Origin: Escherichia coli
GTDB lineage: Bacteria; Pseudomonadota; Gammaproteobacteria; Enterobacterales; Enterobacteriaceae
Length of the DNA: 64,000 bases
Assembly: GCF_024223415.1 (NCBI RefSeq)
Contig: NZ_CP100500.1
Reading direction: 5' to 3' (one strand)
Shown: positions 5,493-56,337 of the stretch, one piece after another
How positions within the stretch are numbered: position 1 is the first letter of the stretch
Layout: the number at the start of each line of letters is the position of its first letter
Position numbers and translations under genes: made by a program
Notes under the pieces: generated by a model
Database searches by the model: none
Seen by the model: only the letters and a program-made list of their open reading frames with translations
Told to the model about the DNA's origin: nothing

Positions 5493-5580
5493 GGTGAGGT
5501 GTCCGAGTGGCTGAAGGAGCACGCCTGGAAAGTGTGTATACGGCAACGTATCGGGGGTTCGAATCCCCCCCTCACCGCCA
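5493..5580 (+). tRNA. serW: tRNA-Ser (anticodon GGA), long variable arm
   Basis: GGTGAGG...CCTCACC acceptor stem, anticodon loop CCTGGAAAG, GGTTCGAATCC T-arm, encoded CCA end; 88 nt; lies after infA as in the conserved core order. Confidence 0.95.
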
Positions 5581-8869: not shown

Positions 8870-8885
8870 CCGCATCTCCACTGAC

Positions 8886-9107: not shown

Positions 9108-9196
9108 GAGAACAGTCCTCCTGAATGTGAAAGTGAGAAACAGCTGAGAAAGAGAAACTGAAGTGACAATATGAAGGTGGCTGTGACGGTGACGGA

Positions 9197-9673: not shown

Positions 9674-9684
9674 AACCTCACCCC

Positions 9685-24625: not shown

Positions 24626-25108
24626 TTATTTTCTTGAGCACACTATACTAATGTATCCCAGAAGAGGTCCTGTGCATAATCCTGTTGCTGCCCATAATAC
24701 AGCAAGTGAAATATCAGGACCATCTGTATCCGGATAAAATCCTCCATAATAAACAGCAAATACAGTAGAGTATGCATTGAATGCAGGTAAACTACTGTTC
24801 ATGCACGGTATCTGAAGGAGTAAAAGAAGAACATACACTGTTATTATTACTGATATAATGATTGCCAACATGGCAGAAATGTGCAGGGATATCATGTAAT
24901 TTATAGCAGCAATACATAACACAGACGTTGCTATACCGGGAAGTAATGAAGCATAAATTTTCTTTAATATGTCAGGCGTCGCTCCCAGAGCATAGTACCA
25001 TGCCCAGCCAATAAATATAGCCCACACAGGAATATTAATCCCCGGCCATGAAGCCAGGCATGACAGCCCTGCTAACAGGGCTATGGTAAGATTCATCGGT
25101 AATTTCAT
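24626..25108 (-). CDS. hypothetical integral membrane protein (last gene of the carboxylase operon)
   Basis: 160-aa ORF, four or five hydrophobic helices, 15 nt downstream of the PxpC-like gene. Confidence 0.6.
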   Translation of the reverse strand: MKLPMNLTIALLAGLSCLASWPGINIPVWAIFIGWAWYYALGATPDILKKIYASLLPGIATSVLCIAAINYMISLHISAMLAIIISVIITVYVLLLLLQIPCMNSSLPAFNAYSTVFAVYYGGFYPDTDGPDISLAVLWAATGLCTGPLLGYISIVCSRK

Positions 25109-25122
25109 TTCAGACGCACCTG

Positions 25123-26109
25123 TTATGAGCCATAAGATAATGAATTAATGAGAAGGTTGAGTCTTTCATTAAATTCTTTACGGATTTCCAGAGCTTTATC
25201 CATACTGACTTGTGAAAATGTCACACTGGAGCCGGGTGCAAGTTGAGCCAGAATATCGAGATCAGTACTCACTACTGTCCCCACTGTCATATATCCCCCT
25301 CCTGATACAGCATCCCTGTGCAAAACTATTGGTGTGCTTCCAGAGGGAACCTGAATTGATCCCACGGGATAACAGGCATCAACGATATTTGATGGATCTG
25401 AACCAGCACCAAATGGCGGGTGCCGATCAACAAAATTAAGTGAGCGCCCTCCCTGAAACCTGAAACCTGTTCTGTCTGAATCCTTACTGATCTTCCATAC
25501 ATCATCAAAAAAACTTTCAACTGATTCCTGTTTCAGGCGATGGATATACATTCCGGGTACAACACGTAATTCATTTTCTTTAGTAAAAACTGGACGTAAC
25601 TCATCTGGCAGAGTGTAATTTATACGCCCTTTATTACATATTGCTTCCTGTACGGGTAATTCATCTCCGGCCTGTAACCGACGTCCTTTATAACCACCAA
25701 GACTGCCAAGGAGGTAAGTAGAACGACTTCCGGCAATAACAGGGACATTAATACCTCCCGCGATGGCAAGGTAACAGCGTACACCCACCGTGGTGTATGC
25801 GATTTTTAATATCTGTCCTTTCCGGGCTAACAGGGATGTATTCACCGGAACACTCTGATTATCCAGGGTCACCGTAAAAGGGGCACCGCTGACTGCAAAA
25901 AGAGTATCCTGCTCAAACAAGAGTTCGGGCCCCAGTAATGTGCATTCCAGCGCTGCATCAAACGGGTGATTACCGACAAGCAAATTGGCGGTAACTAACC
26001 CTGTACGATCTAATGCACCGGATGGCGGGATCCCGAGATGATAAAAGCCTTCTCGTCCTCCGTCCTGAACGGACGTGGATAATCCGGGCGTCAATACTTT
26101 AATTCCCAT
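25123..26109 (-). CDS. biotin-dependent carboxyltransferase family protein (allophanate hydrolase subunit 2 / PxpC-like)
   Basis: Start placed at MGIKVLTPGLSTSVQDGGREG; overlaps upstream gene by 11 nt. Confidence 0.8.
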   Translation of the reverse strand: MGIKVLTPGLSTSVQDGGREGFYHLGIPPSGALDRTGLVTANLLVGNHPFDAALECTLLGPELLFEQDTLFAVSGAPFTVTLDNQSVPVNTSLLARKGQILKIAYTTVGVRCYLAIAGGINVPVIAGSRSTYLLGSLGGYKGRRLQAGDELPVQEAICNKGRINYTLPDELRPVFTKENELRVVPGMYIHRLKQESVESFFDDVWKISKDSDRTGFRFQGGRSLNFVDRHPPFGAGSDPSNIVDACYPVGSIQVPSGSTPIVLHRDAVSGGGYMTVGTVVSTDLDILAQLAPGSSVTFSQVSMDKALEIRKEFNERLNLLINSLSYGS

Positions 26110-26983
26110 ACAGTTCTCCCAGTAAATTTTTAGTATAATCTTCAGGATTTTCTTCAAATGCGTTCAAATCAAAATTTACAGGCCTGATAAGTAATTCAAA
26201 ATTACCAGATTCCACATCACTTATACATTGATTATATTGTTCAGTATTGATCGCCCTGAACTTAATGATGTCCCCTGCCCGGAAAAACACCATAGAGTCT
26301 TTGAAATATGATAATTTCTGTTCTGTGTCATAAATCGGAGCTGGTGTTATACCGAACAATTGATACCCACCTGCCCCCCGGACTGGATATATAGCCCCGA
26401 AGCACCCGCCATGACCAACAGAATGTTTTGGTGTATCAGTTCTGGGAACAAGATATTTTGGAACCTGGATTTGCTTTTTCCGGTCAACCATCTGATACAT
26501 AAAAGGCAGCCCGGCAACGAAGCCAACCATAGAAACAAACCAGGGACTTGAATGATGGGCCTCAATAAACGTCTGAACATCCGGATATCCGTTTATTTCA
26601 GCAGCATACTCAAGATCGGTTAATGCCGGGTTTTGATGATTATTCCGGAACCGCATCAGGGTTTCATGAGTCCATGGATCATTATACAATACAGGAATTT
26701 CAATTATACGTGTCTGTAGTGTCATTTCTCCATTCCCGGAGAGCACATTAACATTTCGTATCTGTTGTAACAAATCATCAGGGTGTATAATGTCGGGATT
26801 AAATCTTATCTGACATGATGCATTTGCAAGGCAAATATCGAGCACACCATTAATATTTAATGATTCTATTTTTCTCGTAAGAGACAAGCTGTGAAAAAAT
26901 GCTTTAAGAGACATTTCCTCACTGACTTCGATGAAAAGATGCTCATCAGCACCAAATGTATAGCGCAAATTTATATCAGTCAT
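26099..26983 (-). CDS. allophanate hydrolase subunit 1 / PxpB-like (KipI family)
   Basis: 294-aa ORF in the conserved position between the biotin carboxylase and the PxpC-like gene. Confidence 0.75.
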   Translation of the reverse strand: MTDINLRYTFGADEHLFIEVSEEMSLKAFFHSLSLTRKIESLNINGVLDICLANASCQIRFNPDIIHPDDLLQQIRNVNVLSGNGEMTLQTRIIEIPVLYNDPWTHETLMRFRNNHQNPALTDLEYAAEINGYPDVQTFIEAHHSSPWFVSMVGFVAGLPFMYQMVDRKKQIQVPKYLVPRTDTPKHSVGHGGCFGAIYPVRGAGGYQLFGITPAPIYDTEQKLSYFKDSMVFFRAGDIIKFRAINTEQYNQCISDVESGNFELLIRPVNFDLNAFEENPEDYTKNLLGELYGN

Positions 26984-26992
26984 ACAGGTTCC

Positions 26993-28354
26993 TCATTTAA
27001 ATGCACCGGTATTCAGCCAGTCTTCAAGCGTTTTATTATGAAACTGAGCATTTCTGAAAAACTCAGCTGATAATAATGCTTCATGAAGAGGTATAGTTGT
27101 ATGAACGCCTTCTATTTGCATATTACCAAGGGTCTCCCGGGCAAGACTTATCGTTTTTTCTCTGCTGTCAGTATGAATAATAAGTTTTGCCAGTAAAGAA
27201 TCATACCAGAGAGGCATCTTATACCCTTCAAACATGTGAGTATCGACTCTTATTCCCTGCCCTTCAGGTATCTGCAATACCGATATTGTTCCGGGACTGG
27301 GCATAAAACCATTGTAAGGATTTTCTGCATTAATCCTCATTTCAATTGCAGCTCCCTGTAACGTAATCTCATCCTGTCCAAACGACAGAGAGTCGCCCCC
27401 GGCAATTCTCAGCATCCAGTCGATAATATCAATGCCTGTGACCATTTCTGTAACCGGATGTTCAACCTGAATCCGCGTATTCATTTCAATAAAAAAGAAT
27501 TCCCCGCTCCGGTCATCGACCAGGTACTCAATAGTTCCTGCGCTTGAATAATTCAGCATTCTGGCGAGATTCAGTGCACTCTGACATAAGGCCTCACGTA
27601 GTGACGCTGAAACAGAAGGCGATGGCGCTTCTTCTGTCACTTTTTGTCTTTTTCTCTGCAGAGAACACTCTCGTTCAAACAGGTGAACGATGTTTTTTCC
27701 GTCTCCAAGGATCTGAACTTCAACATGACGGGCTTCCGGTATATAACGTTCCAGATATACACCATCGTGCCCGAAAGCTGCTTTTGCTTCAGCACGCGCT
27801 ACTGTATATTCATGCACCAGCTGTTCCGGAGAATGTACAATCCGTATCCCCTTCCCGCCTCCCCCGGCCGAGGCCTTTATCAATAAAGGATATCCGGTAA
27901 TATCCGATGCTACTGATAATGCCTCCTCAGGGCTTATAACCTCGCCATTTGAGCCTGGTACAACCGGGACACCTGCCTTTATCGCGCAATCTCTCGCGAT
28001 TGCTTTATCCCCCATTTGCTCAATAATCTGAGGAGATGGCCCAACAAAAATAAGCCCTGCATCGAGCACCGCACGGGCAAAAGACGCATTCTCCGACAGA
28101 AAACCATATCCGGGATGAATGGCCTGAGCGCCAGACTGAAGGGCTGCATCAATTATCTTCTTTCCGTCCAGATAACTGTCATCGGCACGGGATTTACCTA
28201 TGACAATAACTTCATCGGCGCTCTTTGCCGGAAGAGAATTGATGTCTGATTCGCTACATGCCAGCACCGTTTTTATATTCAGCTTCTTTGCACTTCGTAT
28301 AATTCGTAATGCAATCTCACCTCTGTTGGCAATAAGCAGTTTTTGAATACTCAT
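26993..28354 (-). CDS. biotin carboxylase (AccC paralogue, ATP-grasp)
   Basis: 453 aa MSIQKLLIANRGEIALRIIRSAK...; ATP-grasp motifs; ...EMNTRIQVEHPVTE. Confidence 0.9.
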   Translation of the reverse strand: MSIQKLLIANRGEIALRIIRSAKKLNIKTVLACSESDINSLPAKSADEVIVIGKSRADDSYLDGKKIIDAALQSGAQAIHPGYGFLSENASFARAVLDAGLIFVGPSPQIIEQMGDKAIARDCAIKAGVPVVPGSNGEVISPEEALSVASDITGYPLLIKASAGGGGKGIRIVHSPEQLVHEYTVARAEAKAAFGHDGVYLERYIPEARHVEVQILGDGKNIVHLFERECSLQRKRQKVTEEAPSPSVSASLREALCQSALNLARMLNYSSAGTIEYLVDDRSGEFFFIEMNTRIQVEHPVTEMVTGIDIIDWMLRIAGGDSLSFGQDEITLQGAAIEMRINAENPYNGFMPSPGTISVLQIPEGQGIRVDTHMFEGYKMPLWYDSLLAKLIIHTDSREKTISLARETLGNMQIEGVHTTIPLHEALLSAEFFRNAQFHNKTLEDWLNTGAFK

Positions 28355-28364
28355 GCTCAGTTCC

Positions 28365-28622
28365 TTATATTATTTCTATGGTAGCCAGTACCTGACCAGG
28401 TTCCACTTCCTCCCCATTCTCCACCTTAAACTGGATATTAGTCCCGGTTGTTTCAGCATGAATTTCGTTAAACTGCTTCATTATTTCAATCAACCCAATG
28501 ACGGTACTCTCCTGAACAGTGTCACCATTCTCCAGAAACGGGGCACTATCAGGTGCTGGTTTCCGATAAAATACACCAGGTAAAGGTGAAAGAATTTCTG
28601 TAACAGCCATAACATCCTCCAT
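28365..28622 (-). CDS. biotin carboxyl carrier protein (biotinyl domain)
   Basis: 85-aa ORF with biotin-attachment-like EIMKQ motif. Confidence 0.75.
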   Translation of the reverse strand: MEDVMAVTEILSPLPGVFYRKPAPDSAPFLENGDTVQESTVIGLIEIMKQFNEIHAETTGTNIQFKVENGEEVEPGQVLATIEII

Positions 28623-28627
28623 GTATA

Positions 28628-29389
28628 TCAGTTTTGAGAATTTACACTTATGTCTGCCTCACGTAAGGCTTTATTTATTGCAATCAGAAGAGATAAGGCA
28701 CCGGGCGTATCACTATGGACACAGACAGAAGAGAAATGAATGTCAATATCCTGATCTTCTACAGTACGAACTTTTCCCTCCAGACAGGCACGCAGCACTT
28801 TTTTTGCGACATCATCAGGATTAAGAGGTTCAGTTCTCCGTATAAATACAATGGAACCGCTTTGATCATAATCCCTGTCGGCATAAAACTCACAAATAAC
28901 AGGATGTCCGATTTGCGTCGCTTCTTTCCAGATGGCACTACCATACATGCAATATATTCTCAATTCAGGCGCATAACTATGAAGCGTTGAGACAAAATGC
29001 TTTGCAGCATCCCGATCATGAGCAAGATGCATATACAACGCGCCATGAGGCTTAACATGGTTTACAGGCACATTGTGTAATGTGGCAAATTCACGCAAGG
29101 CCCCCAGCTGATAAATCATGTCATTGGTGATTTCCTCTGCGGTGCAGTGAATATGACGCCGGCCAAAACCAGCCAGATCACGATAACCGGGATGAGCACC
29201 GACAGACACACCACTGTCACGGGCGCTGATTATTGTACGGTGCATAATCCCCGGATCACCTGCATGAAAACCTGTCGCTATATTCGCTGAGGAGATGTAT
29301 GGCATAATATCAATATCCCGGATATCTCCGAGAGTCCATGCTCCAAAGCTTTCCCCCATATCAGAGCTGATATCAATACTGCGAAGCAT
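28628..29389 (-). CDS. LamB/YcsF family protein (5-oxoprolinase subunit A / PxpA-like)
   Basis: Start at MLRSIDISSDMGESFGAW with GGAGG Shine-Dalgarno; track ORF extends to 29437. Confidence 0.8.
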   Translation of the reverse strand: MLRSIDISSDMGESFGAWTLGDIRDIDIMPYISSANIATGFHAGDPGIMHRTIISARDSGVSVGAHPGYRDLAGFGRRHIHCTAEEITNDMIYQLGALREFATLHNVPVNHVKPHGALYMHLAHDRDAAKHFVSTLHSYAPELRIYCMYGSAIWKEATQIGHPVICEFYADRDYDQSGSIVFIRRTEPLNPDDVAKKVLRACLEGKVRTVEDQDIDIHFSSVCVHSDTPGALSLLIAINKALREADISVNSQN

Positions 29390-29531
29390 TAAAACCTCCG
29401 TCTGACAAATACGGTAACAGTATGTCATGTAGCACATTTGTTTCTTTATTGTAAATTATTATTTTTCTATGGTAATATATTAAATTTATTTATAATTACT
29501 GTTGCAAAAATATCTTTATCAGGAAAATTTG

Positions 29532-30467
29532 ATGAACATCACACTCAGACAGATAAAATATTTCGTATCAACAGCGGAGTCCGGATCGTTATCAACTGCA
29601 GCCAAATCACTCAATATTTCACAGTCTGCGATAACAACAGCAATTCAGGGGCTTGAAAGGGACATCGGTTATAAATTACTGATTCGCTCAAAATCTGGCG
29701 TTGATTTAACAGATGAGGGAAGACTGTTCTTATACAATGCCTACAATATTATCCGGACATATGATGAGGCAATAAATACAGTGCATGTTCAGAAGCCTTT
29801 GCATGGAACAGTTTCCATTGCGGCGACTTATACAATAATGGGATATTTTTTACCTGTTCATCTGAAACAATTTTCAAGAATTTATCCACATATAAAGCTG
29901 GAGCTTTTTGAAAATCAAAGAAGCATTATTGAAACCGGACTTCTCAGCGGAAAATATGATATTGGGATTGTAATCAATGATAATCTGACATGTCCCGATA
30001 TTGTATCAGAAACACTGTTACGGTCGGAGCGCCGTATATGGTTACCATCCGGCCACCCTCTGCTGGAAAAAGAAATTCTCTCCCTGAATGATATTGTCTC
30101 AGAGCCTTTTATTATCCTTGATGTGGATGAAGCATGGGAAACAGCAAAACGTTACTGGAATACGGCCAGTACCATGCCAGATGTAATTTTACATACGCAT
30201 TCTATTGAAGCTGTACGAAGTATGGTTGCGAATGATATGGGTATAACCATTCTTTCTGACATGGTTTATCGCCCATGGTCGCTTGAAGGGAAACGTATAG
30301 AAACACGCGCATTATCTAAATCAGAAGTTTTCCCAATGAGTATTGGCCTGGCATGGCGTAATAATGTTGAGTTTACGCCTGCAATGCAGGCTTTCATCAA
30401 TTATTTCAGAAAGATTTTTATGTGTTCTCCCGGTTATCAAAACCGGAATGTTGACCACTTTATCTGA
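29532..30467 (+). CDS. LysR-family transcriptional regulator, divergent from the carboxylase operon
   Basis: MNITLRQIKYFVSTAESGSLSTAAKSLNISQSAITTAIQGLE... (helix-turn-helix); track ORF begins 30 nt upstream. Confidence 0.85.
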   Translation: MNITLRQIKYFVSTAESGSLSTAAKSLNISQSAITTAIQGLERDIGYKLLIRSKSGVDLTDEGRLFLYNAYNIIRTYDEAINTVHVQKPLHGTVSIAATYTIMGYFLPVHLKQFSRIYPHIKLELFENQRSIIETGLLSGKYDIGIVINDNLTCPDIVSETLLRSERRIWLPSGHPLLEKEILSLNDIVSEPFIILDVDEAWETAKRYWNTASTMPDVILHTHSIEAVRSMVANDMGITILSDMVYRPWSLEGKRIETRALSKSEVFPMSIGLAWRNNVEFTPAMQAFINYFRKIFMCSPGYQNRNVDHFI

Positions 30468-30608: not shown

Positions 30609-32102
30609 TCAGACCTTTACCAGCACCTGAGGGCAGTGATGGCGCAAACAGGTCAGAAGCGTGGCGAAAGCCTCTTCCATCTGCGCTTCCGGCAGACTCG
30701 CAAATCCCATCAACAGTCCTCTTTTACGCTGTGCTGTCAGGTAGTAAAGCGACAGCGGACGCACCAGTATATTTTGTGCATTGGCGCTGGCCGCAACCGC
30801 AACATCATCAACATCGTCCGGTAAATTTAATATCAGATGCAGCCCGGCATTATCGCTGAAATCTGACAGTGCCTGTGTTCCACAGTGACGTTCAATCAGT
30901 TCACCAAGAAAGGCGCGACGGCGACTGTACAGTAACCGCATACGGCGAATATGAGCAGAATAATGCCCTCCGTTGATAAACTCAGCCAGTGCCATCTGGA
31001 TCAGTGTATGCCCGCCACGATAAAGCTCAGCATGGGCACGTTTTAAAGCCTCTTTCAGCGGGCGCGGTAATACCAGATAACCCAGCCTCAGTCCGGGATA
31101 CACTGTCTTGCTGAAAGTACCAATATACACCACTGGTGCATCGTCAATAAGCCCCTGTAGTGCCGGAACTGGTTGACCGGAAAAGCGAAATTCACTGTCA
31201 TAATCATCTTCCACAATCCAGCTTCCATGCTGTCTGGCAAGGGCCAGCAAGCGTTGCCGTCGCTCAAGACTCATCACCACGCCCAGAGGGTATTGATGGG
31301 ATGGCGTGACGAAAATCAGCCTGGGAGGTGGCATCAGGCGTTCGGGAGGTACCAGACCACTGGCATCAACGGCAACAGGGGTGATCTGCACAGCATTCAT
31401 TGCCAGTACATGGCGTATTCCCCAGTAAGACGGCTCTTCCACCCATGCCATATCACCGGCATCTGCCAGCATGCGTGCAACAAGATCGATCGCCTGATGG
31501 ATACCTTCGGTGATAAGTATCTGATCAGCCTGACAGCGTACGCCACGCGCAATCCGTAAATAATCAACCAGTGCATGCTGTAATTCCGGTGTCCCTCCGG
31601 TACAGCTATAGCTCAGCCGCTCCGGCTCAGGACGGCGACTGATACGCGCCTGAATCCTGCTGAACAGGGGGTGGGGAAAGGCACTGACATCCGGGACGCC
31701 GGGAATAAATGCCCCCCACTGGCACGGACTGGCGCTGACATGCCGGAGCAGATAATCCCCGCGGTGAGAAACAGCAGAACTCAGCCTGGCATCTTCACTT
31801 TTTTCCGTGTTACTGAACGCCATTAAGAAGGTATCAGGAGCCGTCTGTGCGACGAATGTTCCGCTTCCACGACGTGATACCACATATCCTTCCGCCTGTA
31901 ATTGTTCATAAGTTGTTAATACTGTGTTTCTTGAGATTCCAAGTTCAACTGCAAGTTCCCTGGAGGCAGGGAGACGGCTGTGCGGCGGTAAAGAGCCATC
32001 GAGAATAGCATAGCGAAGCGCATTATAGAGCCGTTTGTGCAGAAGTTTATCCTGCTCCTGACCCATTCTGAACAGCAGCAGATCGCCTATGAATGCCCTC
32101 AA
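30609..32102 (-). CDS. MocR/GntR-family regulator with PLP-dependent aminotransferase-like domain
   Basis: N-terminal GntR helix-turn-helix (RLPASRELAVELGISRNTVLTTYEQLQAEGY) plus a long aminotransferase-fold domain; start may be the internal Met at 32066. Confidence 0.8.
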   Translation of the reverse strand: MRAFIGDLLLFRMGQEQDKLLHKRLYNALRYAILDGSLPPHSRLPASRELAVELGISRNTVLTTYEQLQAEGYVVSRRGSGTFVAQTAPDTFLMAFSNTEKSEDARLSSAVSHRGDYLLRHVSASPCQWGAFIPGVPDVSAFPHPLFSRIQARISRRPEPERLSYSCTGGTPELQHALVDYLRIARGVRCQADQILITEGIHQAIDLVARMLADAGDMAWVEEPSYWGIRHVLAMNAVQITPVAVDASGLVPPERLMPPPRLIFVTPSHQYPLGVVMSLERRQRLLALARQHGSWIVEDDYDSEFRFSGQPVPALQGLIDDAPVVYIGTFSKTVYPGLRLGYLVLPRPLKEALKRAHAELYRGGHTLIQMALAEFINGGHYSAHIRRMRLLYSRRRAFLGELIERHCGTQALSDFSDNAGLHLILNLPDDVDDVAVAASANAQNILVRPLSLYYLTAQRKRGLLMGFASLPEAQMEEAFATLLTCLRHHCPQVLVKV

Positions 32103-32220
32103 CTGGATCCCTCAGATAATCAAAATTGGTACTCGATTATAGTGCCATCGCCTGCCTAAATAAACAACACAGCGTCTCATTTGTTGCAGTTAAGTGACAT
32201 ATTTAACAGGAGAGTCGGGA

Positions 32221-33486
32221 ATGAAAAATTCTGAACTGAATCATCGTCGCCAGCAGGCGACTCCCCGTGGTGTGGGGGTAATGTGTGACTACTTTGTCGG
32301 GAAAGCGGAGAACGCCACGCTGTGGGATGTGGAAGGCAATGAAGTTATCGACTTTGCCGCCGGTATTGCCGTACTGAACACCGGCCATCGGCATCCAAAA
32401 ATTGTGGCGGCGGTAGAGCAGCAGTTGCAGTCGTTTACCCATACCGCTTATCAGATTGTCCCTTATGAGAGTTACGTTTCGCTTGCAGAACGTATTAATG
32501 CTGTCGCCCCTGTCGATGGACCTGCCAAAACGGCATTTTTTACCACCGGTGCCGAAGCAGTTGAAAATGCGGTGAAAATTGCGCGCGCATACACCGGTCG
32601 TCCGGGGATTATTACTTTTGGCGGTGGGTTCCATGGTCGTACATTCATGACCATGGCACTCACGGGCAAAGTCGCTCCCTACAAAACAGGGTTTGGCCCG
32701 TTCCCGGGCTCAGTTTACCACGCCGTCTATCCTAATGATGCCCATGGCATTTCCGTTGATGATGCTCTCAGGAGTCTTGATCGTATCTTTAAAGCAGATA
32801 TTCCTGCTGATCAGGTCGCCGCGATTGTACTGGAGCCCGTTCAGGGAGAAGGCGGGTTCAATGTCGCTCCGGCCGCTTTTATGCAGGCATTGCGTGAGTT
32901 GTGCGATACACACGGGATCCTGCTGGTTGCCGACGAAGTACAGACCGGTTTTGCCCGTACTGGCAGGCTATTTGCGATGCAGCACTACGCTGTGAAAGCC
33001 GATCTGATAACAATGGCGAAAAGTCTGGCTGGCGGCTTCCCGTTATCGGGGGTTGTGGGGCGTGCCGAAGTCATGGATGCCCCGGCTCCGGGAGGACTGG
33101 GAGGTACTTATGCCGGTAATCCGCTGGCAGTAGCTGCTGCGCATGCGGTGCTGGATATCATTGAAGAAGAACAGCTCTGCCAGCGTGCCGATCAACTTGG
33201 CGAACATCTGAAAGAGGTGCTCAGTCAGGCCCGGGCAGGATGTCCGGCAATTGCGGATGTGCGTGGACTGGGTTCAATGGTGGCAGTGGAGTTTAACAAT
33301 CCGCAAAGCGGTGAGCCGTCGGCGGAATATGCACGACAGGTACAGCACAAAGCCCGGGAAAACGGCCTGCTGCTGTTGAACTGTGGTATCTACGGTAACG
33401 TTATCCGTTTTCTCTACCCTTTAACAATCCCGGATGCTCAGTTCAGCAAAGCGCTGAATATTCTGACCCGAATTCTGCGTACCTGA
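32221..33486 (+). CDS. class III aminotransferase (4-aminobutyrate aminotransferase GabT-like)
   Basis: Start MKNSELNHRRQQATPRGV with AGGAGAG Shine-Dalgarno; strongly GabT-like throughout. Confidence 0.85.
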   Translation: MKNSELNHRRQQATPRGVGVMCDYFVGKAENATLWDVEGNEVIDFAAGIAVLNTGHRHPKIVAAVEQQLQSFTHTAYQIVPYESYVSLAERINAVAPVDGPAKTAFFTTGAEAVENAVKIARAYTGRPGIITFGGGFHGRTFMTMALTGKVAPYKTGFGPFPGSVYHAVYPNDAHGISVDDALRSLDRIFKADIPADQVAAIVLEPVQGEGGFNVAPAAFMQALRELCDTHGILLVADEVQTGFARTGRLFAMQHYAVKADLITMAKSLAGGFPLSGVVGRAEVMDAPAPGGLGGTYAGNPLAVAAAHAVLDIIEEEQLCQRADQLGEHLKEVLSQARAGCPAIADVRGLGSMVAVEFNNPQSGEPSAEYARQVQHKARENGLLLLNCGIYGNVIRFLYPLTIPDAQFSKALNILTRILRT

Positions 33487-33620
33487 TATGCACGGAAAAT
33501 TGCCACAACGGCAGGGAAGCCTTTCTTTCCCACGTGTCGTTTGTGCCAGGCGTGAGTGATTTATTCCTGATATCACCTTTTTCCGGCGGCAATAGTCGCC
33601 GGTGTAATACGGAATCTGTT

Positions 33621-34865
33621 ATGTCTGAAAATGCCACCTTTTCCCCTGAACAGTCATGCCGCAAACATACCGCTGCGCCGGCGAAATCCCTGAGTTTCGT
33701 TGAAGGTGTGTCGATGATTGTCGGCACGAACATTGGCGCAGGTGTACTGTCTGTGGCCTACGCCTCCGGTAAAGCCGGTTTTCTGCCGCTGTTATTCTGG
33801 CTCGTGCTGGTCGGGAGCCTGACCACCATAACCATGCTGTATGTGGCTGAATCGACTTTACGTACCCGTAAACATTTGCAGTTAAGCGGATTGTCACATC
33901 GTTATGTCGGACGCTGTGGCGCGCTGATAATGTTCCTTTCCGTCTGTGTGAACAGCGTTGGCGCTCTGATTGCATATATGAGCGGAAGCGGTAAGCTGCT
34001 GCACTCACTGCTGGGCATTTCTCCAGCTCTGGGTAGCATGTTATTTTTCATTCCCGCCGCAGGAGTGCTTTATCTCGGCCTGAAAGCGATAGGTCGCGGG
34101 GAAAAATTTATAAGTATCGGTATGGTGGTGATGCTCACTATCCTTATCGTCGCCACAATGCTGAAAGACACAACACAAATGCGTTACCTGCTGGATGGCA
34201 ACTGGCTGTATATGGTGCCGGTCTTTAACGTTGTGGCATTTTGTTTCTCGGCACAATATATTGTTCCGGAAATGGCGCGCGGTTTTTCTGATAAACCAGA
34301 AAAATTGCCGAAGGCAATTATGGTCGGGATGGGAATTACCTTCATTCTGCTGGCTCTGGTGCCTATGTCTGTCATAGCACTCAACGGGCTGGACAATATT
34401 TCTGATGTGGCGACCATTTCCTGGGGACGTGCGCTGGGTGAGTGGGCCTTTTTCTCTGCGAATCTGTTTGCTCTTTGCGCGATGCTGACTTCTTACTGGG
34501 GACTTGGTGGCAGTTTTCTGACCAATATCGTTGACCAGTTCAGTCCGGGCGATGACAGCCAGCCTCTAAGACGCTTTCTGTTACTGCTGATCGTTGTCAT
34601 ACCACCGTTTATTCTTGCTTATAGCGGCATGGTATCGTTTGTAAATGCGCTTTATTTTGCGGGGGTCTTCAGTGGCGTGGTCCTGTCTGTTATGCCCATT
34701 CTGATACTGAAAGGGGCGCGCCAGCACGGTGACCTGACACCTGGCTGGACGTGTCCTGCACTCATTATTCATCCGCTACTCCAGAGCTTTATTGTGTTGT
34801 TATATCTCTGTAGCGCTGCGTATGCAATTGCTTCTGCGCTGGGCCATCTCCCGGCAGGCTGGTAA
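33621..34865 (+). CDS. amino-acid permease (HAAAP-type)
   Basis: About 11 predicted transmembrane helices; start placed at MSENATFSPEQ; family assignment moderate. Confidence 0.65.
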   Translation: MSENATFSPEQSCRKHTAAPAKSLSFVEGVSMIVGTNIGAGVLSVAYASGKAGFLPLLFWLVLVGSLTTITMLYVAESTLRTRKHLQLSGLSHRYVGRCGALIMFLSVCVNSVGALIAYMSGSGKLLHSLLGISPALGSMLFFIPAAGVLYLGLKAIGRGEKFISIGMVVMLTILIVATMLKDTTQMRYLLDGNWLYMVPVFNVVAFCFSAQYIVPEMARGFSDKPEKLPKAIMVGMGITFILLALVPMSVIALNGLDNISDVATISWGRALGEWAFFSANLFALCAMLTSYWGLGGSFLTNIVDQFSPGDDSQPLRRFLLLLIVVIPPFILAYSGMVSFVNALYFAGVFSGVVLSVMPILILKGARQHGDLTPGWTCPALIIHPLLQSFIVLLYLCSAAYAIASALGHLPAGW

Positions 34866-35424: not shown

Positions 35425-36591
35425 ATGATTATTTCCTCACCTGCAGATTACAGGGACGCCGCAAAACACAGACTGCCACGCTTTCTTTTTGATTACATAG
35501 ACGGCGGGGCTGTTACTGAAAAAACCATGCATGAAAATATGACCTCTTTATCTTCGGTCAGCCTCCGGCAGCAGGTGCTTTGTGGCGCCGGAGCCCCCGA
35601 ACTGAACACCACCATCCTTGATTCAGAATGGGCCATGCCTGTTGCTCTGGGCCCCGTCGGTGCCACTGGCATGTACGCCCGTCGTGGAGAGGTGCAGGCA
35701 GCCAGAGCGGCCTCAGCAATGAACATCCCTTATACTCTCTCAACCGTCTCCGTCTGCCCGATCGAAGAGGTCGCCGGACACGCTGACGGGCAACTGTGGT
35801 CCCAGTTATACGTCCTTCGGGATCGTGGTTATATGCAAAACGCACTTGAACGCGCCTGGACTGCAGGTATGAAAACCCTGGTATTTACCGTCGACATGCC
35901 TGTGCCGGGCTCCCGGTACAGGGATAACCATTCAGGGATGTCAGGTCCCCACGCCACACTGCGTCAGTATCTTCAGGCCGTTCTTCATCCCCGCTGGGCG
36001 CTGGATGTGGGAATTGCCGGTCGTCCTCTGTCATTTGGTAACATCGAAACGTACACCGGGCATAAAATGTCGATGGATGACTATATGGGCTTTATCAGCA
36101 AAAACTTTGATCCCTCTATTGCATGGAACGATCTCGAATGGATCCGTGATGGCTGGAAAGGTAAACTGATAATAAAAGGGATCCTTGTTCCGGAAGATGC
36201 AAAAAATGCTGTACGGCTTGGCGCGGATGGCATCATTGTCTCCAATCATGGCGGACGTCAGCTTGATGGTGCCATCCCCACGGCCAGGGCATTACCGGCG
36301 ATAGCAGATGCAGTGGGTGATGACATCACGGTACTGGCGGATTCAGGTATTCGTTCCGGTGTGGATGTGGTCCGGATGCTTGCTCTGGGGGCAAAAGGTG
36401 TGCTGCTGGGAAGAGCGTATATTTACGCACTTGCCGCTGCGGGAAAAAAAGGCGTTGAGCACCTGCTCAGACTTTATGCTGAAGATATGAAAGTCACCAT
36501 GACGCTGATCGGCGCTTCTTCTCCCGCTGATATCAGCAGCAGAAATCTTGAATATCTGGAAAAAGAATTCTCCCGACATTCATCATCCTGA
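35425..36591 (+). CDS. FMN-dependent L-lactate dehydrogenase (LldD paralogue)
   Basis: 388 aa [29 protein letters not shown]...; alpha-hydroxy-acid oxidase fold motifs. Confidence 0.88.
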
Positions 36592-36667
36592 CCAAAGTAA
36601 ACCAGGCACATATCCTCCATGCTCCCGGGACAACAGAGCGCAGTTCGGGCACTACAGCCTTACTGGT

Positions 36668-36958
36668 TTACCAGTATGGTCTGCATTCAGAAGGGACCGA
36701 CAACAACTCAGCCAGCTCCGCCACAAGGCGGTTGGTTTCCAGTAATTTCCGCAGTCTCACCGAAAAATAGCCTTGTGCCACATCGTGATTTTCACAGGCT
36801 TCCCTGCGCGTCAGCCCCAGAACAAAATAATCCCTCAGCGCCAGGATAACCTTTTTACTGTTAACGGGAGAAAGCGCTGCAAGTATTTCAAAATGTGCAT
36901 CTGACATGCTTCCGGGCGTGTCATATATCCCGGCAACACGACTGTGATATATCCCCAC
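36668..36958 (-). CDS. PapB/FocB-family fimbrial-type transcriptional regulator (orphan)
   Basis: 96-aa ORF with PGSMSDAHFEILAALSPVNSKKVILALRDYFVLGLTRREACENHDVAQGYFSVRLRKL, resembling PapB. Confidence 0.55.
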   Translation of the reverse strand: MGIYHSRVAGIYDTPGSMSDAHFEILAALSPVNSKKVILALRDYFVLGLTRREACENHDVAQGYFSVRLRKLLETNRLVAELAELLSVPSECRPYW

Positions 36959-37839
36959 GGATACCCCCTGATTACCGCCTGCCCTTATTCCCCGGGAGAC
37001 TGAGAACAGGCTGAGATATAAGTATATTTATATAATATTATATTTCGGATTATTCGCAGAATACTGAAAAAACCGGTCGGGTCAACCGCAGGAAAACAGA
37101 AAGAGCCTGTAATAACGCATAGAAACGATATTTAAAACCAGAACAACCATCAAAAACAGAACATAAAGTCACAAAAACCGTCAAAAACGACCAGGTACTG
37201 CATTTTTAACACCTTTTTTAAATTTTGGTATCTTTACAAAAAACACCACCTGAAAATCATTTATTTAATTAAATAAAGTAAATTGCTTAGCCTGATAAAT
37301 ATTGTTCTGCAACACTCCGGTTCAGGCAGAATGTATTTTCATGGCTTACCCATTCAGGCGTAAATGCGATATTCCGCACATGACAGAGACCACACAAAGA
37401 AAAACAGGCGCAGACAGCCGGATACAGGATAAATTAACACTTCACAATCCGGCATTATTACGCTACAACATTCACGGGCAACTGCCCTTGTAACGAAAAC
37501 TTCCTTAATTTGGGTATTTGTGTGCCGTACGTCTGTGGTGTACGGCTTTTTTTCATTTTTTTATAATTTCTATAAATAAAGATATAATCAATACGTATAT
37601 ACCGTCGTATAAGATCCTTCTTCACCTTTCATTAAAAAGATCCGGAACAAAACAGACGATGAGATTGTGGTACTACCAGATTTACACCCTTACTCCGGAT
37701 AATTCACAAATCCTGAAATTACGACCTTCCTCCCGTTGCCGGACTGAAACAATATGCAGACACTCTGACGGACATGTCAGCAATGCACTCGCTCTCTGCT
37801 GTACAGGTATTACACCATACTTCACCAGGAGGTCTGTTC

Positions 37840-39483
37840 ATGGATATCTGGTCACAGGACTATGATCCCGTCGGAAATATCTGGCTGTCCAGCCTGACAG
37901 CATCGCTTCCCATTCTGTTTTTTTTCTTTGCCCTGATTAAGCTGAAGCTTAAAGGCCATGTTGCTGCCACATGGACTGTCATTATCGCGCTCATCGTGGC
38001 CCTTCTTTTTTATAAGATGCCTCTCACAGCCGCACTCGCTTCCGTGCTCTATGGTTTCTTCTATGGCCTGTGGCCCATTGCCTGGATAATTATTGCCGCA
38101 GTTTTTGTTTATAAAATTTCTGTAAAAACCGGACAGTTCGATATCATTCGCGCTTCAGTGCTGTCCGTTACGCCTGATCAGCGTATTCAGATGCTGATTG
38201 TGGGGTTTGCCTTTGGTGCCTTTCTCGAAGGGGCCGCCGGTTTTGGAGCACCTGTGGCCATAACAGCAGCACTGCTCGTGGTGCTTGGGTTCAGACCACT
38301 TTACGCGGCCGGGTTGTGTCTGATCGTCAATACAGCTCCCGTGGCCTTTGGTGCGATGGGGATCCCCATTCTCGTCGCAGGCCAGGTTACCGGGCTGGAC
38401 AGCTTTGAAATCGGTCAGATGGTTGGTCGTCAGTTACCCTTCCTGACCATTATTGTGTTGTTCTGGATCATGGCAATTATGGATGGCCTGCGTGGCATTA
38501 AGGAAACCTGGCCCGCCGTTCTGGTTGCCGGAGGTTCCTTCGCCATAGCCCAGTTTCTCAGTTCCAACTTTCTGGGCCCGGAGCTCCCGGACATCATATC
38601 ATCACTGGTGTCGCTGGTTTGTCTGACGCTTTTCCTGAAACGCTGGCAGCCTGTACATATTTTTCGCTTTGACAACACCCCGTACCAGAATACGGACTCA
38701 TCACCACTGAGCCGTTCACAGGTGATACGGGCATGGTCGCCATTTCTGTTTCTGACTGCCACGGTGACACTCTGGAGTCTTCCTCCCTTTAAAACACTGT
38801 TCGCACCGGGCGGTACACTGCATGACCTGGTGATTACTGTTCCTGTGCCGTATCTTGATAAACTCATTGCACGTATGCCTCCGGTAGTCAGCGAAGCCAC
38901 TGCTTATGCCGCGGTGTTTAAGTTTGACTGGTTCTCTGCCACCGGTACCGCCATCCTGTTTGCAGCATTGCTCTCTGTGATCTGGCTGAAGATGAAACCG
39001 TCAGATGCTGTCAGCACCTTTGGCAGTACACTGAAAGAACTTGCCCTGCCCGTCTATTCCATCGGCATGGTGCTGGCTTTCGCCTTTATCTCTAATTATT
39101 CGGGGCTTTCATCCACACTTGCCCTGGCTCTGGCACAGACAGGCAGCGCCTTTACGTTCTTCTCACCGTTTCTGGGCTGGCTGGGCGTATTTCTGACGGG
39201 ATCAGATACCTCATCCAATGCATTATTTGCATCACTCCAGGCAACGGCAGCTCATCAGATCGGGGTCTCCGATATTCTGATGGTTGCCGCCAACACCACA
39301 GGGGGAGTAACCGGCAAAATGATTTCTCCACAGTCCATTGCCATCGCCTGCGCAGCAACCGGACTTGTTGGCAAAGAATCAGAACTCTTTCGTTTTACTG
39401 TTAAACACAGCCTGATCTTCACCTGTATTGTGGGAGTCATCACCTCTCTCCAGGCATGGGTATTCACCTGGATGATCCCATGA
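37840..39483 (+). CDS. L-lactate permease (LldP/GlcA family paralogue)
   Basis: Start [39 protein letters not shown]...; LldP-like over full length; track ORF begins 66 nt upstream. Confidence 0.9.
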
Positions 39484-51142: not shown

Positions 51143-51429
51143 AGGGACCGTTCACAGTTATCAGGACGGACGGCATGTTGCGCCAACAGTCTTACCTGTG
51201 AACTGTATAGTGAACGTCTTTATGCTTATGGCAGTAAATCCACCAGTTGCAAACATCCCCCGCTGACCGGGGGAAAGTATTCATGTACCTGTTGTTGATT
51301 TACTGATGTCCATATCGGACATTCAGCATGATACGCGTTGTCATCCGGAACACGACTCTCTGTCGTATAAATATACCCCCGGATGAACGCTGTTTCGGAT
51401 GTGCGTACCTGGGGGCCTCAGGTGACAGC

Positions 51430-52449
51430 TCAGACGGTGGTCATATCAATAACGATTCTGCCGTTGATTTTTCCTGCGCGCATGCGGCCGAATACAGAGT
51501 TGATATTTTCCAGTGGCTCCGTGGTGACCTCTGCATGAACCTTGTGCTGACCGGTAAAGAAGAGAGCTTCCTGCAAATCCTTACGGGTCCCTACAATAGA
51601 ACCCCTCACAGTTATACCATCAAGCACCATATCGAATATCGACAAATCAAATTTCCCCGGCGGCAGACCGTTCAGTACCATCGTTCCGCCACGACGCATC
51701 ATACCTGTGGCCTGAGAAAATGCGGCTGGTGACACTGCCGTGACCAGTACACCATGTGCACCACCAGTTTCTGCATGAATGCGCTGTACCGGATTTTCAC
51801 GCACGGCGTTCACCACAACAGAGGCTCCAAGTCTGCAGGCCAGCTCCAGTTTACTGTCATCCACATCAACAGCCGCAACATTCATCCCCATCGCGGCGGC
51901 ATACTGAACGGCCAGATGTCCCAGTCCTCCGACACCGGAAATCACCACCCATTCCCCCGGGCGGGCTTCCGTCATTTTCAGTCCTTTGTAAACAGTCACG
52001 CCGGCGCAAAGCACGGGGGCTATATGGTGAAAATCAACATTATCCGGAAGAAGTCCGACATAATTCGCATCCGCAAGACAGTATTCCGCAAACGTGCCAT
52101 TCACCGAATAACCAGCATTTTGTTGGGAATGACACAGGGTTTCCCAGCCCCCCAGGCAATGCTCACAGTAGCCGCATGCAGAATACAGCCAGGGAACCCC
52201 TACCCGATCGCCTTCCCTGATATGTTTTACGCCGGCACCCACGGCCACCACGTGACCTACCCCTTCATGTCCCGGAATAAACGGCGGACGTGGTTTGACT
52301 GGCCAGTCACCATCTGCAGCATGAAGATCGGTATGGCATACCCCCGTGGCTGCTATTCTGACCAGAATTTTTCCGGGTTCAATGGCCGGCACGGTAACTT
52401 CATCAATAACCAGCGGTTTTCCAAATTCTGTGACAATAGCGGCTTTCAT
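51430..52449 (-). CDS. zinc-dependent alcohol dehydrogenase (AdhP-like)
   Basis: [21 protein letters not shown]...GHEGVGHV...; zinc and GxGxxG motifs. Confidence 0.88.
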
Positions 52450-52494
52450 GGTTTTGAGTTGCATTTTTGATTCCTCTGTTAGCGAAAGACAAAA

Positions 52495-54015: not shown

Positions 54016-54081
54016 GACATTCTCCCTGAGCGAAATTCAGTGTACGTTCATGCAGGAACAAAACTGTTGCAGATAACCTTA

Positions 54082-54097
54082 AGCAACACCCATGCCA
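54082..54097 (-). promoter_or_regulatory. sigma-54 (-24/-12) promoter upstream of the aldB-adhP operon
   Basis: Minus strand reads TGGCATGGGTGTTGCT (GG and GC spaced as in TGGCAC-N5-TTGCA), about 65 nt upstream of the aldB start. Confidence 0.7.
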
Positions 54098-54256
54098 CCA
54101 AGTTGTTACACACAGTTAACAACAACAAAAACAGCCTGTTAGCCCAAAAAACAGACAACCGAAAAAGAATCACCACAGGAAAATGTGAAGCAAATAAAAC
54201 ATTTTCGATACACAAATGATACAATCATGCAACACAACTGTTGCAAGGATTGAATT

Positions 54257-56017: not shown

Positions 56018-56337
56018 GAACAACGTGCTGCCGGATACGTTATTTGCGGGAAATTCCTGTTCTGTAAAATATATCTCAGGTTGTTAAAACCCTGTCATTC
56101 TTCCATGTGAACAGTATGAGAAACATCACACGGGTATATTCACGGCCGGCACAACCACAGACATAAATGATATCCTGCGCATCATTTCCTGATGCTCTGA
56201 TACTGAGTTAACCACTTATTTACATCTGACGATAAATTGTTTATTCATTCTTCAGGGTAAATAAAGCCATAAGGAGTGTGATATTCACGATACGCTGAAA
56301 ATCGGTGAACTGAAAAATGGCAGTTACAGGGGGAAAT

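Follow-up and report, generated by a model that had tools for sequence, protein, structure and literature searches.

In Bacillus subtilis, the MocR-type, PLP-dependent regulator GabR is encoded divergently from the gabTD operon for GABA aminotransferase. Residues H114, R207 and R430 of GabR hold the GABA carboxylate (PMC6917764), and its operator boxes, of the TGGTAC/ATACCA type, overlap both promoters; TGGTAC is a box of the gabT promoter (PMC9452892). A proteobacterial GabR regulog has also been described (Suvorova and Rodionov, 2016; PMC5320631), whose supplement assigns Klebsiella pneumoniae KPN_03826 and Serratia proteamaculans 568 Spro_4307 to 'GabR (Proteobacteria)' as predicted GABA regulators. 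The published regulons comprise GabT alone (Klebsiella MGH 78578) or GabT and GabD (Serratia); a HAAAP-type permease is absent, and the group's named transporters are GabP, GbtABCD and DppABCD (PMC5320631).

PdxR of Corynebacterium, Streptococcus, Listeria and Bacillus clausii is of the same MocR type, and the HAAAP transporters (TC 2.A.42) include TyrP, Mtr, TnaB, SdaC and TdcC. Escherichia coli has the GABA aminotransferases PuuE and GabT, whose genes are governed by PuuR, CsiR, sigma-S or Nac.

Here, we analyzed a 64-kb stretch of E. coli DNA (hereafter the window), of which positions 30609-34865 hold a 4.26 kb cassette of three intact open reading frames, a regulator gene on the minus strand followed by divergent aminotransferase and permease genes on the plus strand:

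30609-32102, minus strand: MocR-type PLP-binding regulator, 497 aa from a TTG start, with Pfam GntR and Aminotran_1_2 domains
32104-32147, no strand assigned: predicted three-box operator of the regulator, from conservation of boxes and spacing
32133-32162, plus strand: tentatively inferred promoter of the aminotransferase-permease operon
32221-33486, plus strand: predicted GABA:2-oxoglutarate aminotransferase of the PuuE clade, 421 aa, from NCBIfam models, identity and conserved residues
33583-33602, plus strand: GC-rich RNA hairpin between gabT and the permease gene, from covariation and conservation
33621-34865, plus strand: HAAAP-family (Trp_Tyr_perm) permease and putative GABA importer, 414 aa with about 11 hydrophobic segments

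At the nucleotide level, homology with other Enterobacteriaceae spans exactly 30621-34865, the block that a sequence-only reading had singled out, and homology to other genera stops precisely with the stop codon at either end. The three reading frames are all full-length and equal in length to their orthologs, with dN/dS values of 0.04-0.12. We consider it likely that the cassette is a self-contained, horizontally acquired unit scavenging gamma-aminobutyrate (GABA).

The regulator's divergent partner, earlier read as a class III aminotransferase, matches Pfam Aminotran_3 (2e-133) and passes the NCBIfam GABA-aminotransferase equivalog cut-offs (NF005272, 842 bits against 725; NF007308, 766 against 747). 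Its longest open reading frame is 32194-33486 on the plus strand; the likely start is ATG 32221, which follows an AGGAG Shine-Dalgarno site, agrees with RefSeq and gives the ortholog length. The protein is 87% identical to the solved structure of the K. pneumoniae ortholog (PDB 6WJ8) and closer to PuuE (7JH3, 75%) than to E. coli GabT (1SF2, 57%), with a dN/dS of about 0.05. It keeps GabT residues I50, G111, H139, R141, E206, E211, D239, V241, Q242, K268, T297 and R398, including both arginines and the residues defining GABA/2-oxoglutarate recognition. These measures place it in the PuuE clade of GABA:2-oxoglutarate aminotransferases. Family, reaction and catalytic residues are common to the cassette enzyme, PuuE and GabT, beside which it forms a third, accessory copy in 0.2% of genomes. 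Unlike the E. coli genes, however, the cassette is under a MocR-type regulator, and it has no gabD, gabP or puu neighbours such as those of the PuuE and GabT (csiD-lhgO-gabDTP) loci. The proposed lack of gabD and gabP is borne out, as neither an aldehyde dehydrogenase nor an APC-type GabP was found within the three-gene unit; the sole Aldedh match in the window (52528-53964, ExaC-like) lies about 18 kb from the cassette.

The HAAAP assignment of the downstream gene also stands. Its longest open reading frame is 33534-34865 on the plus strand, with ATG 33621 as the likely start since the resulting 414 aa equal the ortholog length. The permease (dN/dS about 0.04-0.06) matches Trp_Tyr_perm (PF03222, 4.9e-30, 105 bits), as do HAAAP transporters of similar size and hydrophobic segment number. 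It is nevertheless very distant from the characterised members, far under the aromatic amino-acid transporter cut-offs (TIGR00837, 85 against 350; TyrP, 48 against 482; tryptophan permease, 24 bits against 515), and additionally matches the AAAP family (Aa_trans, PF01490, 1.6e-08, 34 bits). Its gene context points to GABA rather than to the aromatic or hydroxy amino acids of HAAAP transporters. Of 80 species loci, 45 have a permease ortholog adjoining gabT, and 25 of those 45 have gabD too. This linkage takes three gene orders (gabT-perm, gabT-gabD-perm and perm-gabT-gabD), extends across Enterobacterales, Crenobacter, Lautropia, Gallibacterium and Wohlfahrtiimonas, and makes GABA the likely substrate. 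In about 27 Pseudomonas species the permease occurs by itself. In the fuller cassettes of Serratia, Mangrovibacter, Mixta, Crenobacter and others, a bona fide succinate-semialdehyde dehydrogenase (SSADH) gene separates gabT from the permease gene, and the Serratia dehydrogenase passes the SSADH model (TIGR01780, 731 against 646). Because of these fuller cassettes, the 'omega-amino acid' of the sequence-only reading can be narrowed, most likely to GABA.

The regulator is the GntR/MocR fusion it had been taken for. Both domains are matched (GntR, 1.8e-16; Aminotran_1_2, 6.6e-24), giving the MocR architecture of a GntR wHTH and an aminotransferase-like domain, and the protein aligns over its full length to B. 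subtilis GabR (4N0B) and B. clausii PdxR (7PQ9). The GabR PLP residues Y205, D279, Y281, K312 and R319 are conserved as Y226, D299, Y301, K332 and R339, the PLP lysine thus being intact, and dN/dS is 0.06-0.12. Identity is 78% to KPN_03826, the gene adjoining rpoH, and 71% to Spro_4307, whose loci have the same divergent regulator-gabT layout; by orthology, the regulator belongs to the proteobacterial 'GabR' group. The E. coli unit lies on a mobile island instead of the chromosomal rpoH-livJ site. B. subtilis GabR is only about 30% identical, the regulator scoring well under the NCBIfam GabR cut-off (285 against 600), and the cassette operon, unlike gabTD, has a permease and no gabD. The GabR carboxylate ligands H114, R207 and R430 are Pro, Gly and Leu in E. 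coli (P134, G228 and Leu452). At the third position, most orthologs, including the GabR-regulog relatives, have Arg; Leu452 (CGT to CTT) is confined to the E. coli copy among 20 orthologs checked, and Gln or Ser occurs in some otherwise intact cassettes. The effector response of the E. coli regulator may therefore differ or be impaired. We take the Cupriavidus necator GabR system that was tested with GABA to be the C. necator member listed in the regulog. In that system, GABA gave only 1.9-fold induction (PMC7057948).

It is unlikely, though worth weighing, that the cassette handles one or more other omega-amino compounds (5-aminovalerate, beta-alanine, a putrescine-derived intermediate, an amino-sulfonate or a broader set), with GABA as one or a minor substrate of enzyme, permease and regulator. 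5-Aminovalerate is a known substrate that GabT-family enzymes accept. Homotaurine can be processed by GabP, GabT and GabD, according to work cited in PMC5320631. The regulator's effector pocket is unlike that of B. subtilis GabR, and no characterised close relative of the permease was found among the profile models, homologs and literature searched, its substrate being read from gene context alone. Against such a substrate, the enzyme is 75% identical to PuuE with its recognition residues and both arginines kept, and the dehydrogenase of the fuller cassettes passes the SSADH model and no other listed aldehyde dehydrogenase model.

The predicted operator consists of TGGATC (32104-32109), N17, TGGTAC (32127-32132), N9 and inverted GTGCCA (32142-32147), with box 1 between the regulator's Shine-Dalgarno site and start codon. 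This three-box pattern occurs once in the 64-kb window (0.02 expected). Of 27 orthologous intergenic regions, 24 keep the boxes and spacings, with variation in the box 1-box 2 spacer. The boxes are of the B. subtilis GabR type, but their spacing and order are unlike those of its operator. A consensus scan of the gabT-regulator intergenic region found no strong sigma-70 promoter, as expected of an activator-dependent promoter. We tentatively place the promoter of the aminotransferase-permease operon at 32133-32162, with a -35-like TCGATT (32133-32138), an 18-nt spacer containing box 3 and a -10-like TAAATA (32157-32162); the blocks TCGATTATA and TAAATAAAC are near-invariant across Enterobacterales.

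Between the two operon genes, the hairpin CCGGCGGC-AATA-GTCGCCGG (about -15 kcal/mol) lies 18 nt before the permease ATG with no U-tract behind it, and is conserved ahead of the permease gene in Enterobacterales with either gabT or gabD upstream. Across 26 sequences, pairing holds in 93.9% of cells against 25-56% in slid registers. Double-change cells number 19, where shuffles give 5.9 ± 2.5, and many of the G-U pairs are valid in plus-strand RNA only. The hairpin has no Rfam family; its probable role is to stabilise the upstream message or to tune expression of the permease.

The unit had been described as island-borne, and it does lie on an island beginning directly after tRNA-Ser(GGA) (5493-5580), downstream of trxB-cydDC-aat-infA. 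The cassette is carried by 11 of 5426 complete E. coli genomes (0.2%), few strains having acquired it horizontally on a genomic island. Among the island's pseudogenes are an Ag43 gene with an internal stop and, in strain 135, a frameshifted lldD. That E. coli carries the cassette as silent or decaying cargo, intact in sequence and not usefully inducible, strikes us as improbable. Its rarity, its place on a mosaic island rich in IS elements and pseudogenes, the lost gabD and the Arg-to-Leu change at the regulator's carboxylate-binding arginine, seen in the E. coli copy only, would fit such cargo. However, the three frames have ortholog-matching lengths, operator, Shine-Dalgarno sites and hairpin are all intact, position 452 is Gln or Ser in otherwise intact cassettes, and gabD is also missing from the chromosomal, widespread unit of Klebsiella, Raoultella, Citrobacter, Enterobacter and Cedecea.

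RefSeq names the regulator 'PLP-dependent aminotransferase family protein' or 'PdxR'. Its score on the NCBIfam PdxR equivalog model clears the cut-off (NF052282, 409 bits against 320), and therefore 3 of the 11 carrier genomes label the gene pdxR; its best PDB match is PdxR (7PQ9, 208 bits), on a par with GabR (206 bits), and at GabR positions 114 and 207 it has Pro and a non-basic residue, as in PdxR. Yet a PdxR-type vitamin B6 regulator that senses PLP, tunes a PLP enzyme or B6 metabolism and ignores GABA is very improbable, given that the regulator adjoins gabT in 36 of 36 regulator-bearing loci (of 80 species loci) and never pdxST or B6 genes, that no pdx gene adjoins it here or in Klebsiella and Serratia loci with gene calls, that the intergenic region beside gabT holds the conserved operator, that a rhizopine-MocR model outscores the PdxR model (477 bits against 409), suggesting a permissive PdxR cut-off, that Gly at 207 is typical of the entire GabR/PdxR/TauR/MocR cluster (PMC6677901), and that comparative genomics assigned the Klebsiella and Serratia orthologs to the GabR group and not to a PdxR group, with no pdx genes in Enterobacterial GabR regulons (PMC5320631). 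The PdxR label of newer RefSeq is probably an over-call.

In the GABA-scavenging unit that we favour, the permease would import GABA, and the PuuE-type aminotransferase would transfer its amino group to 2-oxoglutarate, yielding glutamate and succinic semialdehyde. Because the E. coli/Klebsiella form of the cassette has lost its own gabD, host succinate-semialdehyde dehydrogenases (GabD, Sad/YneI) would oxidise the aldehyde to succinate. The regulator would bind the three hexamer boxes between the two divergent start codons. With PLP on Lys332 it would repress its own gene, by analogy with B. subtilis GabR and because box 1 lies in its own 5' leader; by the same analogy, the aminotransferase-permease operon would be activated once an amino acid effector and PLP form an external aldimine. 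The hairpin would probably set the enzyme-to-permease ratio. The literature searched held no experimental evidence on the cassette or close orthologs, and we infer the regulator's effector, activation versus repression, the transported substrate, the promoter and expression. The cassette is an ordinary representative of a known type of GABA-utilisation unit, and its HAAAP-type putative GABA importer is the only, modestly new element.

The cassette at 30609-34865 is of a known kind, a MocR/GabR-controlled GABA catabolic unit. An ORF check placed three real reading frames at the positions proposed in the sequence-only reading, and domain searches bore out its assignments. More specifically, the proposed GntR/MocR fusion regulator joins a GntR helix-turn-helix to a class I/II aminotransferase-like domain (Pfam), the class III aminotransferase (Aminotran_3) is divergent from it on the opposite strand, and the putative HAAAP-type permease matches Trp_Tyr_perm (PF03222). 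The suggestion of a catabolic unit for an omega-amino acid is likewise supported, and the substrate can be narrowed to GABA as the most likely one.

Genes and predicted regulatory elements of the cassette
30609-32102, minus strand: regulator, 497 aa, MocR architecture (Pfam)
32104-32109: operator box 1 (predicted), TGGATC, then a 17 nt spacer
32127-32132: operator box 2 (predicted), TGGTAC, then a 9 nt spacer
32142-32147: operator box 3 (predicted), GTGCCA, inverted
32221-33486, plus strand: aminotransferase, 421 aa, likely start ATG 32221, Aminotran_3 2e-133
33583-33602, plus strand: hairpin CCGGCGGC-AATA-GTCGCCGG, -15.4 kcal/mol, 18 nt before the permease start
33621-34865, plus strand: permease, 414 aa, likely start ATG 33621, Trp_Tyr_perm (HAAAP), also Aa_trans

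The aminotransferase start at ATG 32221 is preceded by AGGAG, coincides with the RefSeq start and gives a length in agreement with the orthologs.

The unit had been described as island-borne, and it is. The window opens with trxB-cydDC-aat-infA, followed by tRNA-Ser(GGA) at 5493-5580 and, directly after the tRNA, by island cargo; the cassette lies on this island and is carried, 100% identical, by 11 of 5426 complete E. coli genomes. It was not found in the plasmid collection searched. Upstream, the cassette is flanked by a LysR gene and a pxpA-BCCP-biotin carboxylase-pxpBC cluster; on its downstream side come lldD, a papB-like gene, lldP and an MFS gene. In BLASTN comparisons with six other Enterobacterales, homology of 70-78% covers window 30621-34865, starting and stopping at the cassette's two outermost stop codons. 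The three genes thus make up a single unit, set apart from neighbours that are unrelated mosaic cargo. Because the closest relative found, Citrobacter sedlakii, is only 85-89% identical at the protein level with a dS of about 1.5, no sampled species is the direct donor. Relative to their Citrobacter, Klebsiella and Serratia orthologs, all three genes have dN/dS values of 0.04-0.12; these reflect constraint on the family over the long term and do not bear on function after the cassette reached E. coli.

The island begins at the serW position, after infA. Its cargo between 5493 and 24000 includes a CbtA/YeeU toxin-antitoxin pair, RadC, an antirestriction gene, DUF932, IS66/ISEc8 copies, a YeeP-like GTPase, an ABC transporter, an Ag43 gene broken by an internal stop, and an IS102 RNA match at 17751-17947 (Rfam). 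A different 4-aminobutyrate aminotransferase gene, with 73% nucleotide identity to the island gene, lies on the mobilizable 142 kb E. coli plasmid NZ_CP107722.1 (44030-44985). The right third of the window, taken as a whole, has no match in any complete E. coli genome.

The chemistry of the aminotransferase is, judging from sequence, close to certain to be GABA:2-oxoglutarate transamination. The protein passes the equivalog-level GABA-aminotransferase cut-offs of NCBIfam (NF005272, 842 against 725; NF007308, 766 against 747) as well as TIGR00700 (667 against 507). It is 87% identical to the solved structure 6WJ8, which matches the Klebsiella pneumoniae gene of the orthologous cassette at 419 of 421 residues, 75% to 7JH3 and 57% to E. 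coli GabT (1SF2). The 7JH3 entry is deposited as PuuE, and we take its sequence to be that of E. coli K-12 PuuE, an enzyme with established GABA:2-oxoglutarate transaminase activity. Residues K267, D238, R140, R396 and E210 correspond to GabT K268 (the Schiff-base lysine), D239 (the pyridine-nitrogen aspartate) and R141, R398 and E211, which handle GABA and 2-oxoglutarate. GabT residues I50, G111, H139, E206, V241, Q242 and T297 are also kept, and the sole changes among the active-site residues examined, S112A and Y138F, are both common to PuuE.

Assigning the regulator requires a choice between GabR and PdxR. Its Pfam domains, GntR at residues 23-84 and Aminotran_1_2 at residues 158-480, give the MocR subfamily arrangement of an N-terminal GntR winged helix-turn-helix and a C-terminal fold-type-I aminotransferase-like domain, and it aligns over its full length with both Bacillus subtilis GabR (206 bits) and B. 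clausii PdxR (208 bits). By itself the sequence does not decide. The PdxR model NF052282 is passed (409 bits, cut-off 320), and the passing of this cut-off accounts for the 'pdxR' label in 3 of the 11 E. coli genomes in RefSeq; the score is topped by that of the rhizopine-MocR model, at 477 bits against a cut-off of 650. The B. subtilis-type GabR model NF052285 is missed (285 bits, cut-off 600).

Gene context settles the group as GabR, not PdxR. Wherever the regulator is present (36 loci), it is divergently arranged with gabT. No vitamin B6 gene (pdxST, pdxK and similar) lies in the neighbourhood here or in those Klebsiella and Serratia loci for which genes are called, the gabT neighbour alone being established in the remaining species loci. 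Identity is 78% to a Klebsiella gene abutting rpoH and 70-71% to Serratia genes; as rpoH is KPN_03827 (PMC4882505), the Klebsiella ortholog is KPN_03826. The supplement of Suvorova and Rodionov (2016; PMC5320631) lists KPN_03826 under 'GabR (Proteobacteria) - Enterobacteriales' with GabT as its regulon, and Serratia Spro_4307 under the same heading with GabT and GabD. Orthology to these two genes and the conserved divergent gabT place the E. coli regulator in that regulog. According to a 2024 paper, E. coli, Klebsiella and Bordetella also have gabR genes upstream of gabT (PMC11669113). The pdxR name in newer RefSeq annotations is therefore probably an over-annotation, and likely a mis-annotation: the gene's surroundings in 36 species and the regulog as published both indicate a regulator for GABA.

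Residues that hold the cofactor are intact. Y226, D299, Y301, K332 and R339 are invariant in 10 orthologs; in GabR, roles in holding the cofactor are described for Y205, D279, K312 (the PLP lysine) and R319 (PMC6917764). The B. subtilis GabR ligands of the GABA carboxylate, H114, R207 and R430, have no match in the regulator, which carries P134, G228 and L452 at these positions. Pro134 and Gly228 are invariant in the orthologs, and glycine at GabR position 207 is typical of the whole GabR/PdxR/TauR/MocR cluster (PMC6677901). Position 452 varies: among 20 orthologs it is Arg in 14, Gln in 3 and Ser in 2, with Leu in the E. coli copy alone. The codon (window 30747-30749, minus strand) is CTT in E. 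coli, a CGT to CTT change, and encodes Arg (CGT/CGC) in Citrobacter, Klebsiella, Serratia and most other orthologs. Leu452 may alter effector sensing, so that the E. coli allele responds differently. Retention of the PLP residues, together with the unmatched carboxylate ligands, suggests a regulator that would work like GabR but stands outside the Firmicutes GabR group. A Cupriavidus necator GabR system, which may be the C. necator member listed in the regulog, shows 1.9-fold induction by GABA (PMC7057948), the only experiment we found on a possible member of the proteobacterial GabR regulog.

The 118 bp between the regulator and gabT hold all three predicted operator boxes. The pattern TGGATC-N17-TGGTAC-N9-GTGCCA occurs once in the window against 0.02 expected. 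Of 27 orthologous intergenic regions, ranging from Klebsiella to Crenobacter, 24 keep the boxes and their spacings, with drift in the sequence between boxes 1 and 2. The pattern agrees with the GabR (Proteobacteria) motif as described verbally, not as a logo, in PMC5320631, and TGGTAC is one box of the B. subtilis gabT promoter (PMC9452892). Because box 1 comes after the regulator's Shine-Dalgarno site (GAGGG) and before its conserved start codon, TTG, bound regulator should block its own expression. Invariant blocks around box 3, TCGATTATA and TAAATAAAC, might serve the gabT operon as a weak -35/-10 pair. A sigma-70 consensus scan of the regulatory region gave no strong promoter, terminator-like matches there were at chance level, and inspection by eye of the conserved block downstream of box 3 gave no convincing CRP, Nac or sigma-54 site. 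By analogy with B. subtilis GabR, the regulator would activate the gabT-permease operon and, bound at box 1, repress its own gene.

The unit had further been distinguished from the chromosomal gab operon by its lack of gabD and gabP. This holds: ORF, annotation and domain checks found no aldehyde dehydrogenase (Aldedh) and no APC-type GabP permease in the unit or adjoining it, whereas the chromosomal operon (csiD-lhgO-gabDTP) has both gabD and the APC-family gabP beside gabT. E. coli has GabD and Sad/YneI, and these host enzymes could take the succinic semialdehyde formed. A cryptic gabD elsewhere in the window was considered and rejected: the sole Aldedh, at 52528-53964 on the minus strand, is ExaC-like (839 bits) and lies beside adhP and a sigma-54 regulator, and is therefore unrelated to the cassette. 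The ExaC-like acetaldehyde dehydrogenase, adhP and the sigma-54-dependent regulator lie together with a sodium:alanine symporter in a block (about 51200-56500) that shares 99% identity with part of strain NCTC9699.

The survey of gene order covered 80 loci, obtained by a search for permease relatives in a single genome of each species, and used TBLASTN with all cassette proteins.

Gene orders at the 80 permease loci
Regulator divergent from gabT-permease: 20 of 80; Klebsiella, Raoultella, Citrobacter sedlakii, Enterobacter, Cedecea, Pluralibacter, Franconibacter, Pantoea and others
Regulator divergent from gabT-gabD-permease: 16 of 80; Serratia, Mangrovibacter, Mixta, Crenobacter
gabT, gabD and permease, no regulator within reach: 9 of 80; Lautropia, Gallibacterium, and Wohlfahrtiimonas in the order permease-gabT-gabD
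Permease alone: 35 of 80; mostly Pseudomonas (guaBA-purL housekeeping region) and Xenorhabdus

The extra gene of Serratia passes the succinate-semialdehyde dehydrogenase model (TIGR01780, 731 against 646), and the E. coli/Klebsiella form of the cassette has lost gabD. Linkage of the permease to gabT, and in 25 loci also to gabD, spans four taxonomic orders and three gene orders and is the main argument for GABA as the cargo. The context of the lone permeases in Pseudomonas (guaBA-purL) and Xenorhabdus offers no functional clue. In Xenorhabdus (loci L037-L041 and L070), the last ~30 nt of gabD and the hairpin still precede the gene, which shows that gabT and gabD were lost there and the permease kept. 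In two other loci, L012 (Klebsiella michiganensis, 8519-10000) and L013 (a Tolumonas MAG), an insert of about 1.5 kb with an opposite-strand gene separates gabT from the permease and takes the place of the conserved leader and hairpin.

The same survey bears on two proposed links to neighbouring genes, both of which we rejected. A lactate link would draw on LldD and LldP, which occur within 5-8 kb of the permease in only two Pseudomonas loci (L050 and L053); we treat this as coincidence. A lactam link, in which pxpA-BCCP-biotin carboxylase-pxpB-pxpC would open a lactam to an omega-amino acid for the cassette, is unsupported since none of the 80 loci has PxpA, biotin carboxylase, BCCP or LysR adjoining the cassette and nucleotide homology stops at the cassette's ends. 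The pxp cluster itself (about 24626-30467, minus strand) comprises DUF1097, pxpC, pxpB, biotin carboxylase, BCCP and pxpA (LamB/YcsF), and a LysR regulator runs divergently from it. This 5-oxoprolinase-like system, which brings a biotin carboxylase of its own, was not found beside the cassette in any other species examined. After the cassette, an accessory L-lactate set (35425-39483) consists of lldD, a PapB/FocB-like fimbrial regulator on the opposite strand, lldP and the MFS gene; lldD is intact in the window and annotated as frameshifted in strain 135.

The permease scores 105 bits against PF03222 (cut-off 22) over residues 52-405 of the long ORF, and a crude hydropathy scan gives roughly 10-12 hydrophobic segments, about 11 transmembrane segments being expected of HAAAP proteins. 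Its AlphaFold model, built from a 15-sequence alignment, has a mean pLDDT of 38 and is unusable. Scores fall far under the aromatic and hydroxy amino acid subfamily models (TIGR00837, 85 against 350; TyrP, 48 against 482; tryptophan permease, 24 against 515), so the RefSeq name is a family label only. Searches of the literature returned no paper on the permease clade or on any HAAAP-type GABA transporter, and locus tags of the Klebsiella and Serratia cassettes retrieved nothing except rpoH (KPN_03827). PMC5320631 names GabP, GbtABCD and DppABCD as transporters of proteobacterial GabR regulons. From its conserved linkage, the permease is a probable new type of GABA importer. For the fuller proposal, that it represents an uncharacterised HAAAP-like clade of dedicated GABA (omega-amino acid) importers, a fourth type in GabR regulons beside these three, with expression set by the intercistronic hairpin, we consider the chances evenly balanced.

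This GC-rich hairpin precedes the permease gene throughout Enterobacterales, with either gabT or gabD upstream. Across 26 distinct sequences, 93.9% of cells pair, compared to 25-56% in slid registers; double-change cells number 19 versus 5.9 +/- 2.5 in shuffles, and compensatory changes occur in 4 of the 9 pairs. Many U-G/G-U cells pair in the plus-strand transcript only, which favours a structure in the RNA rather than a palindrome in the DNA. There is no U-tract after the hairpin, and Rfam gave no credible match. Its role may be that of a stabiliser or attenuator between the two cistrons, which would set the ratio of enzyme to permease.

Much of the system is already known: orthologs of the regulator-enzyme pair in Klebsiella and Serratia were catalogued in 2016, and the structure of the enzyme ortholog is solved. 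Our understanding of the system class is thus unchanged by the cassette, and the points of interest are small, namely the probable new importer type, the conserved hairpin, the likely 'PdxR' mis-annotation, flagged here as it is now spreading in RefSeq, and the Arg-to-Leu change in the regulator. Arg452Leu, at the canonical carboxylate-binding arginine, is a natural variant for testing effector sensing in proteobacterial GabR-type regulators. The analysis also offers a probable function for a widespread permease, labelled only 'aromatic amino acid transport family protein' in databases, with orthologs in Klebsiella (a cluster of more than 2000 sequences), Serratia, Enterobacter, Citrobacter and Pseudomonas. 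GABA is abundant in gut and plant tissue, and a substrate-inducible uptake and transamination unit could supply carrier strains with an extra nitrogen source. If the fuller importer proposal is true, the island would let rare E. coli lineages scavenge GABA in the gut by a GABA-inducible route that does not depend on gab and puu, which are under stress and putrescine control.
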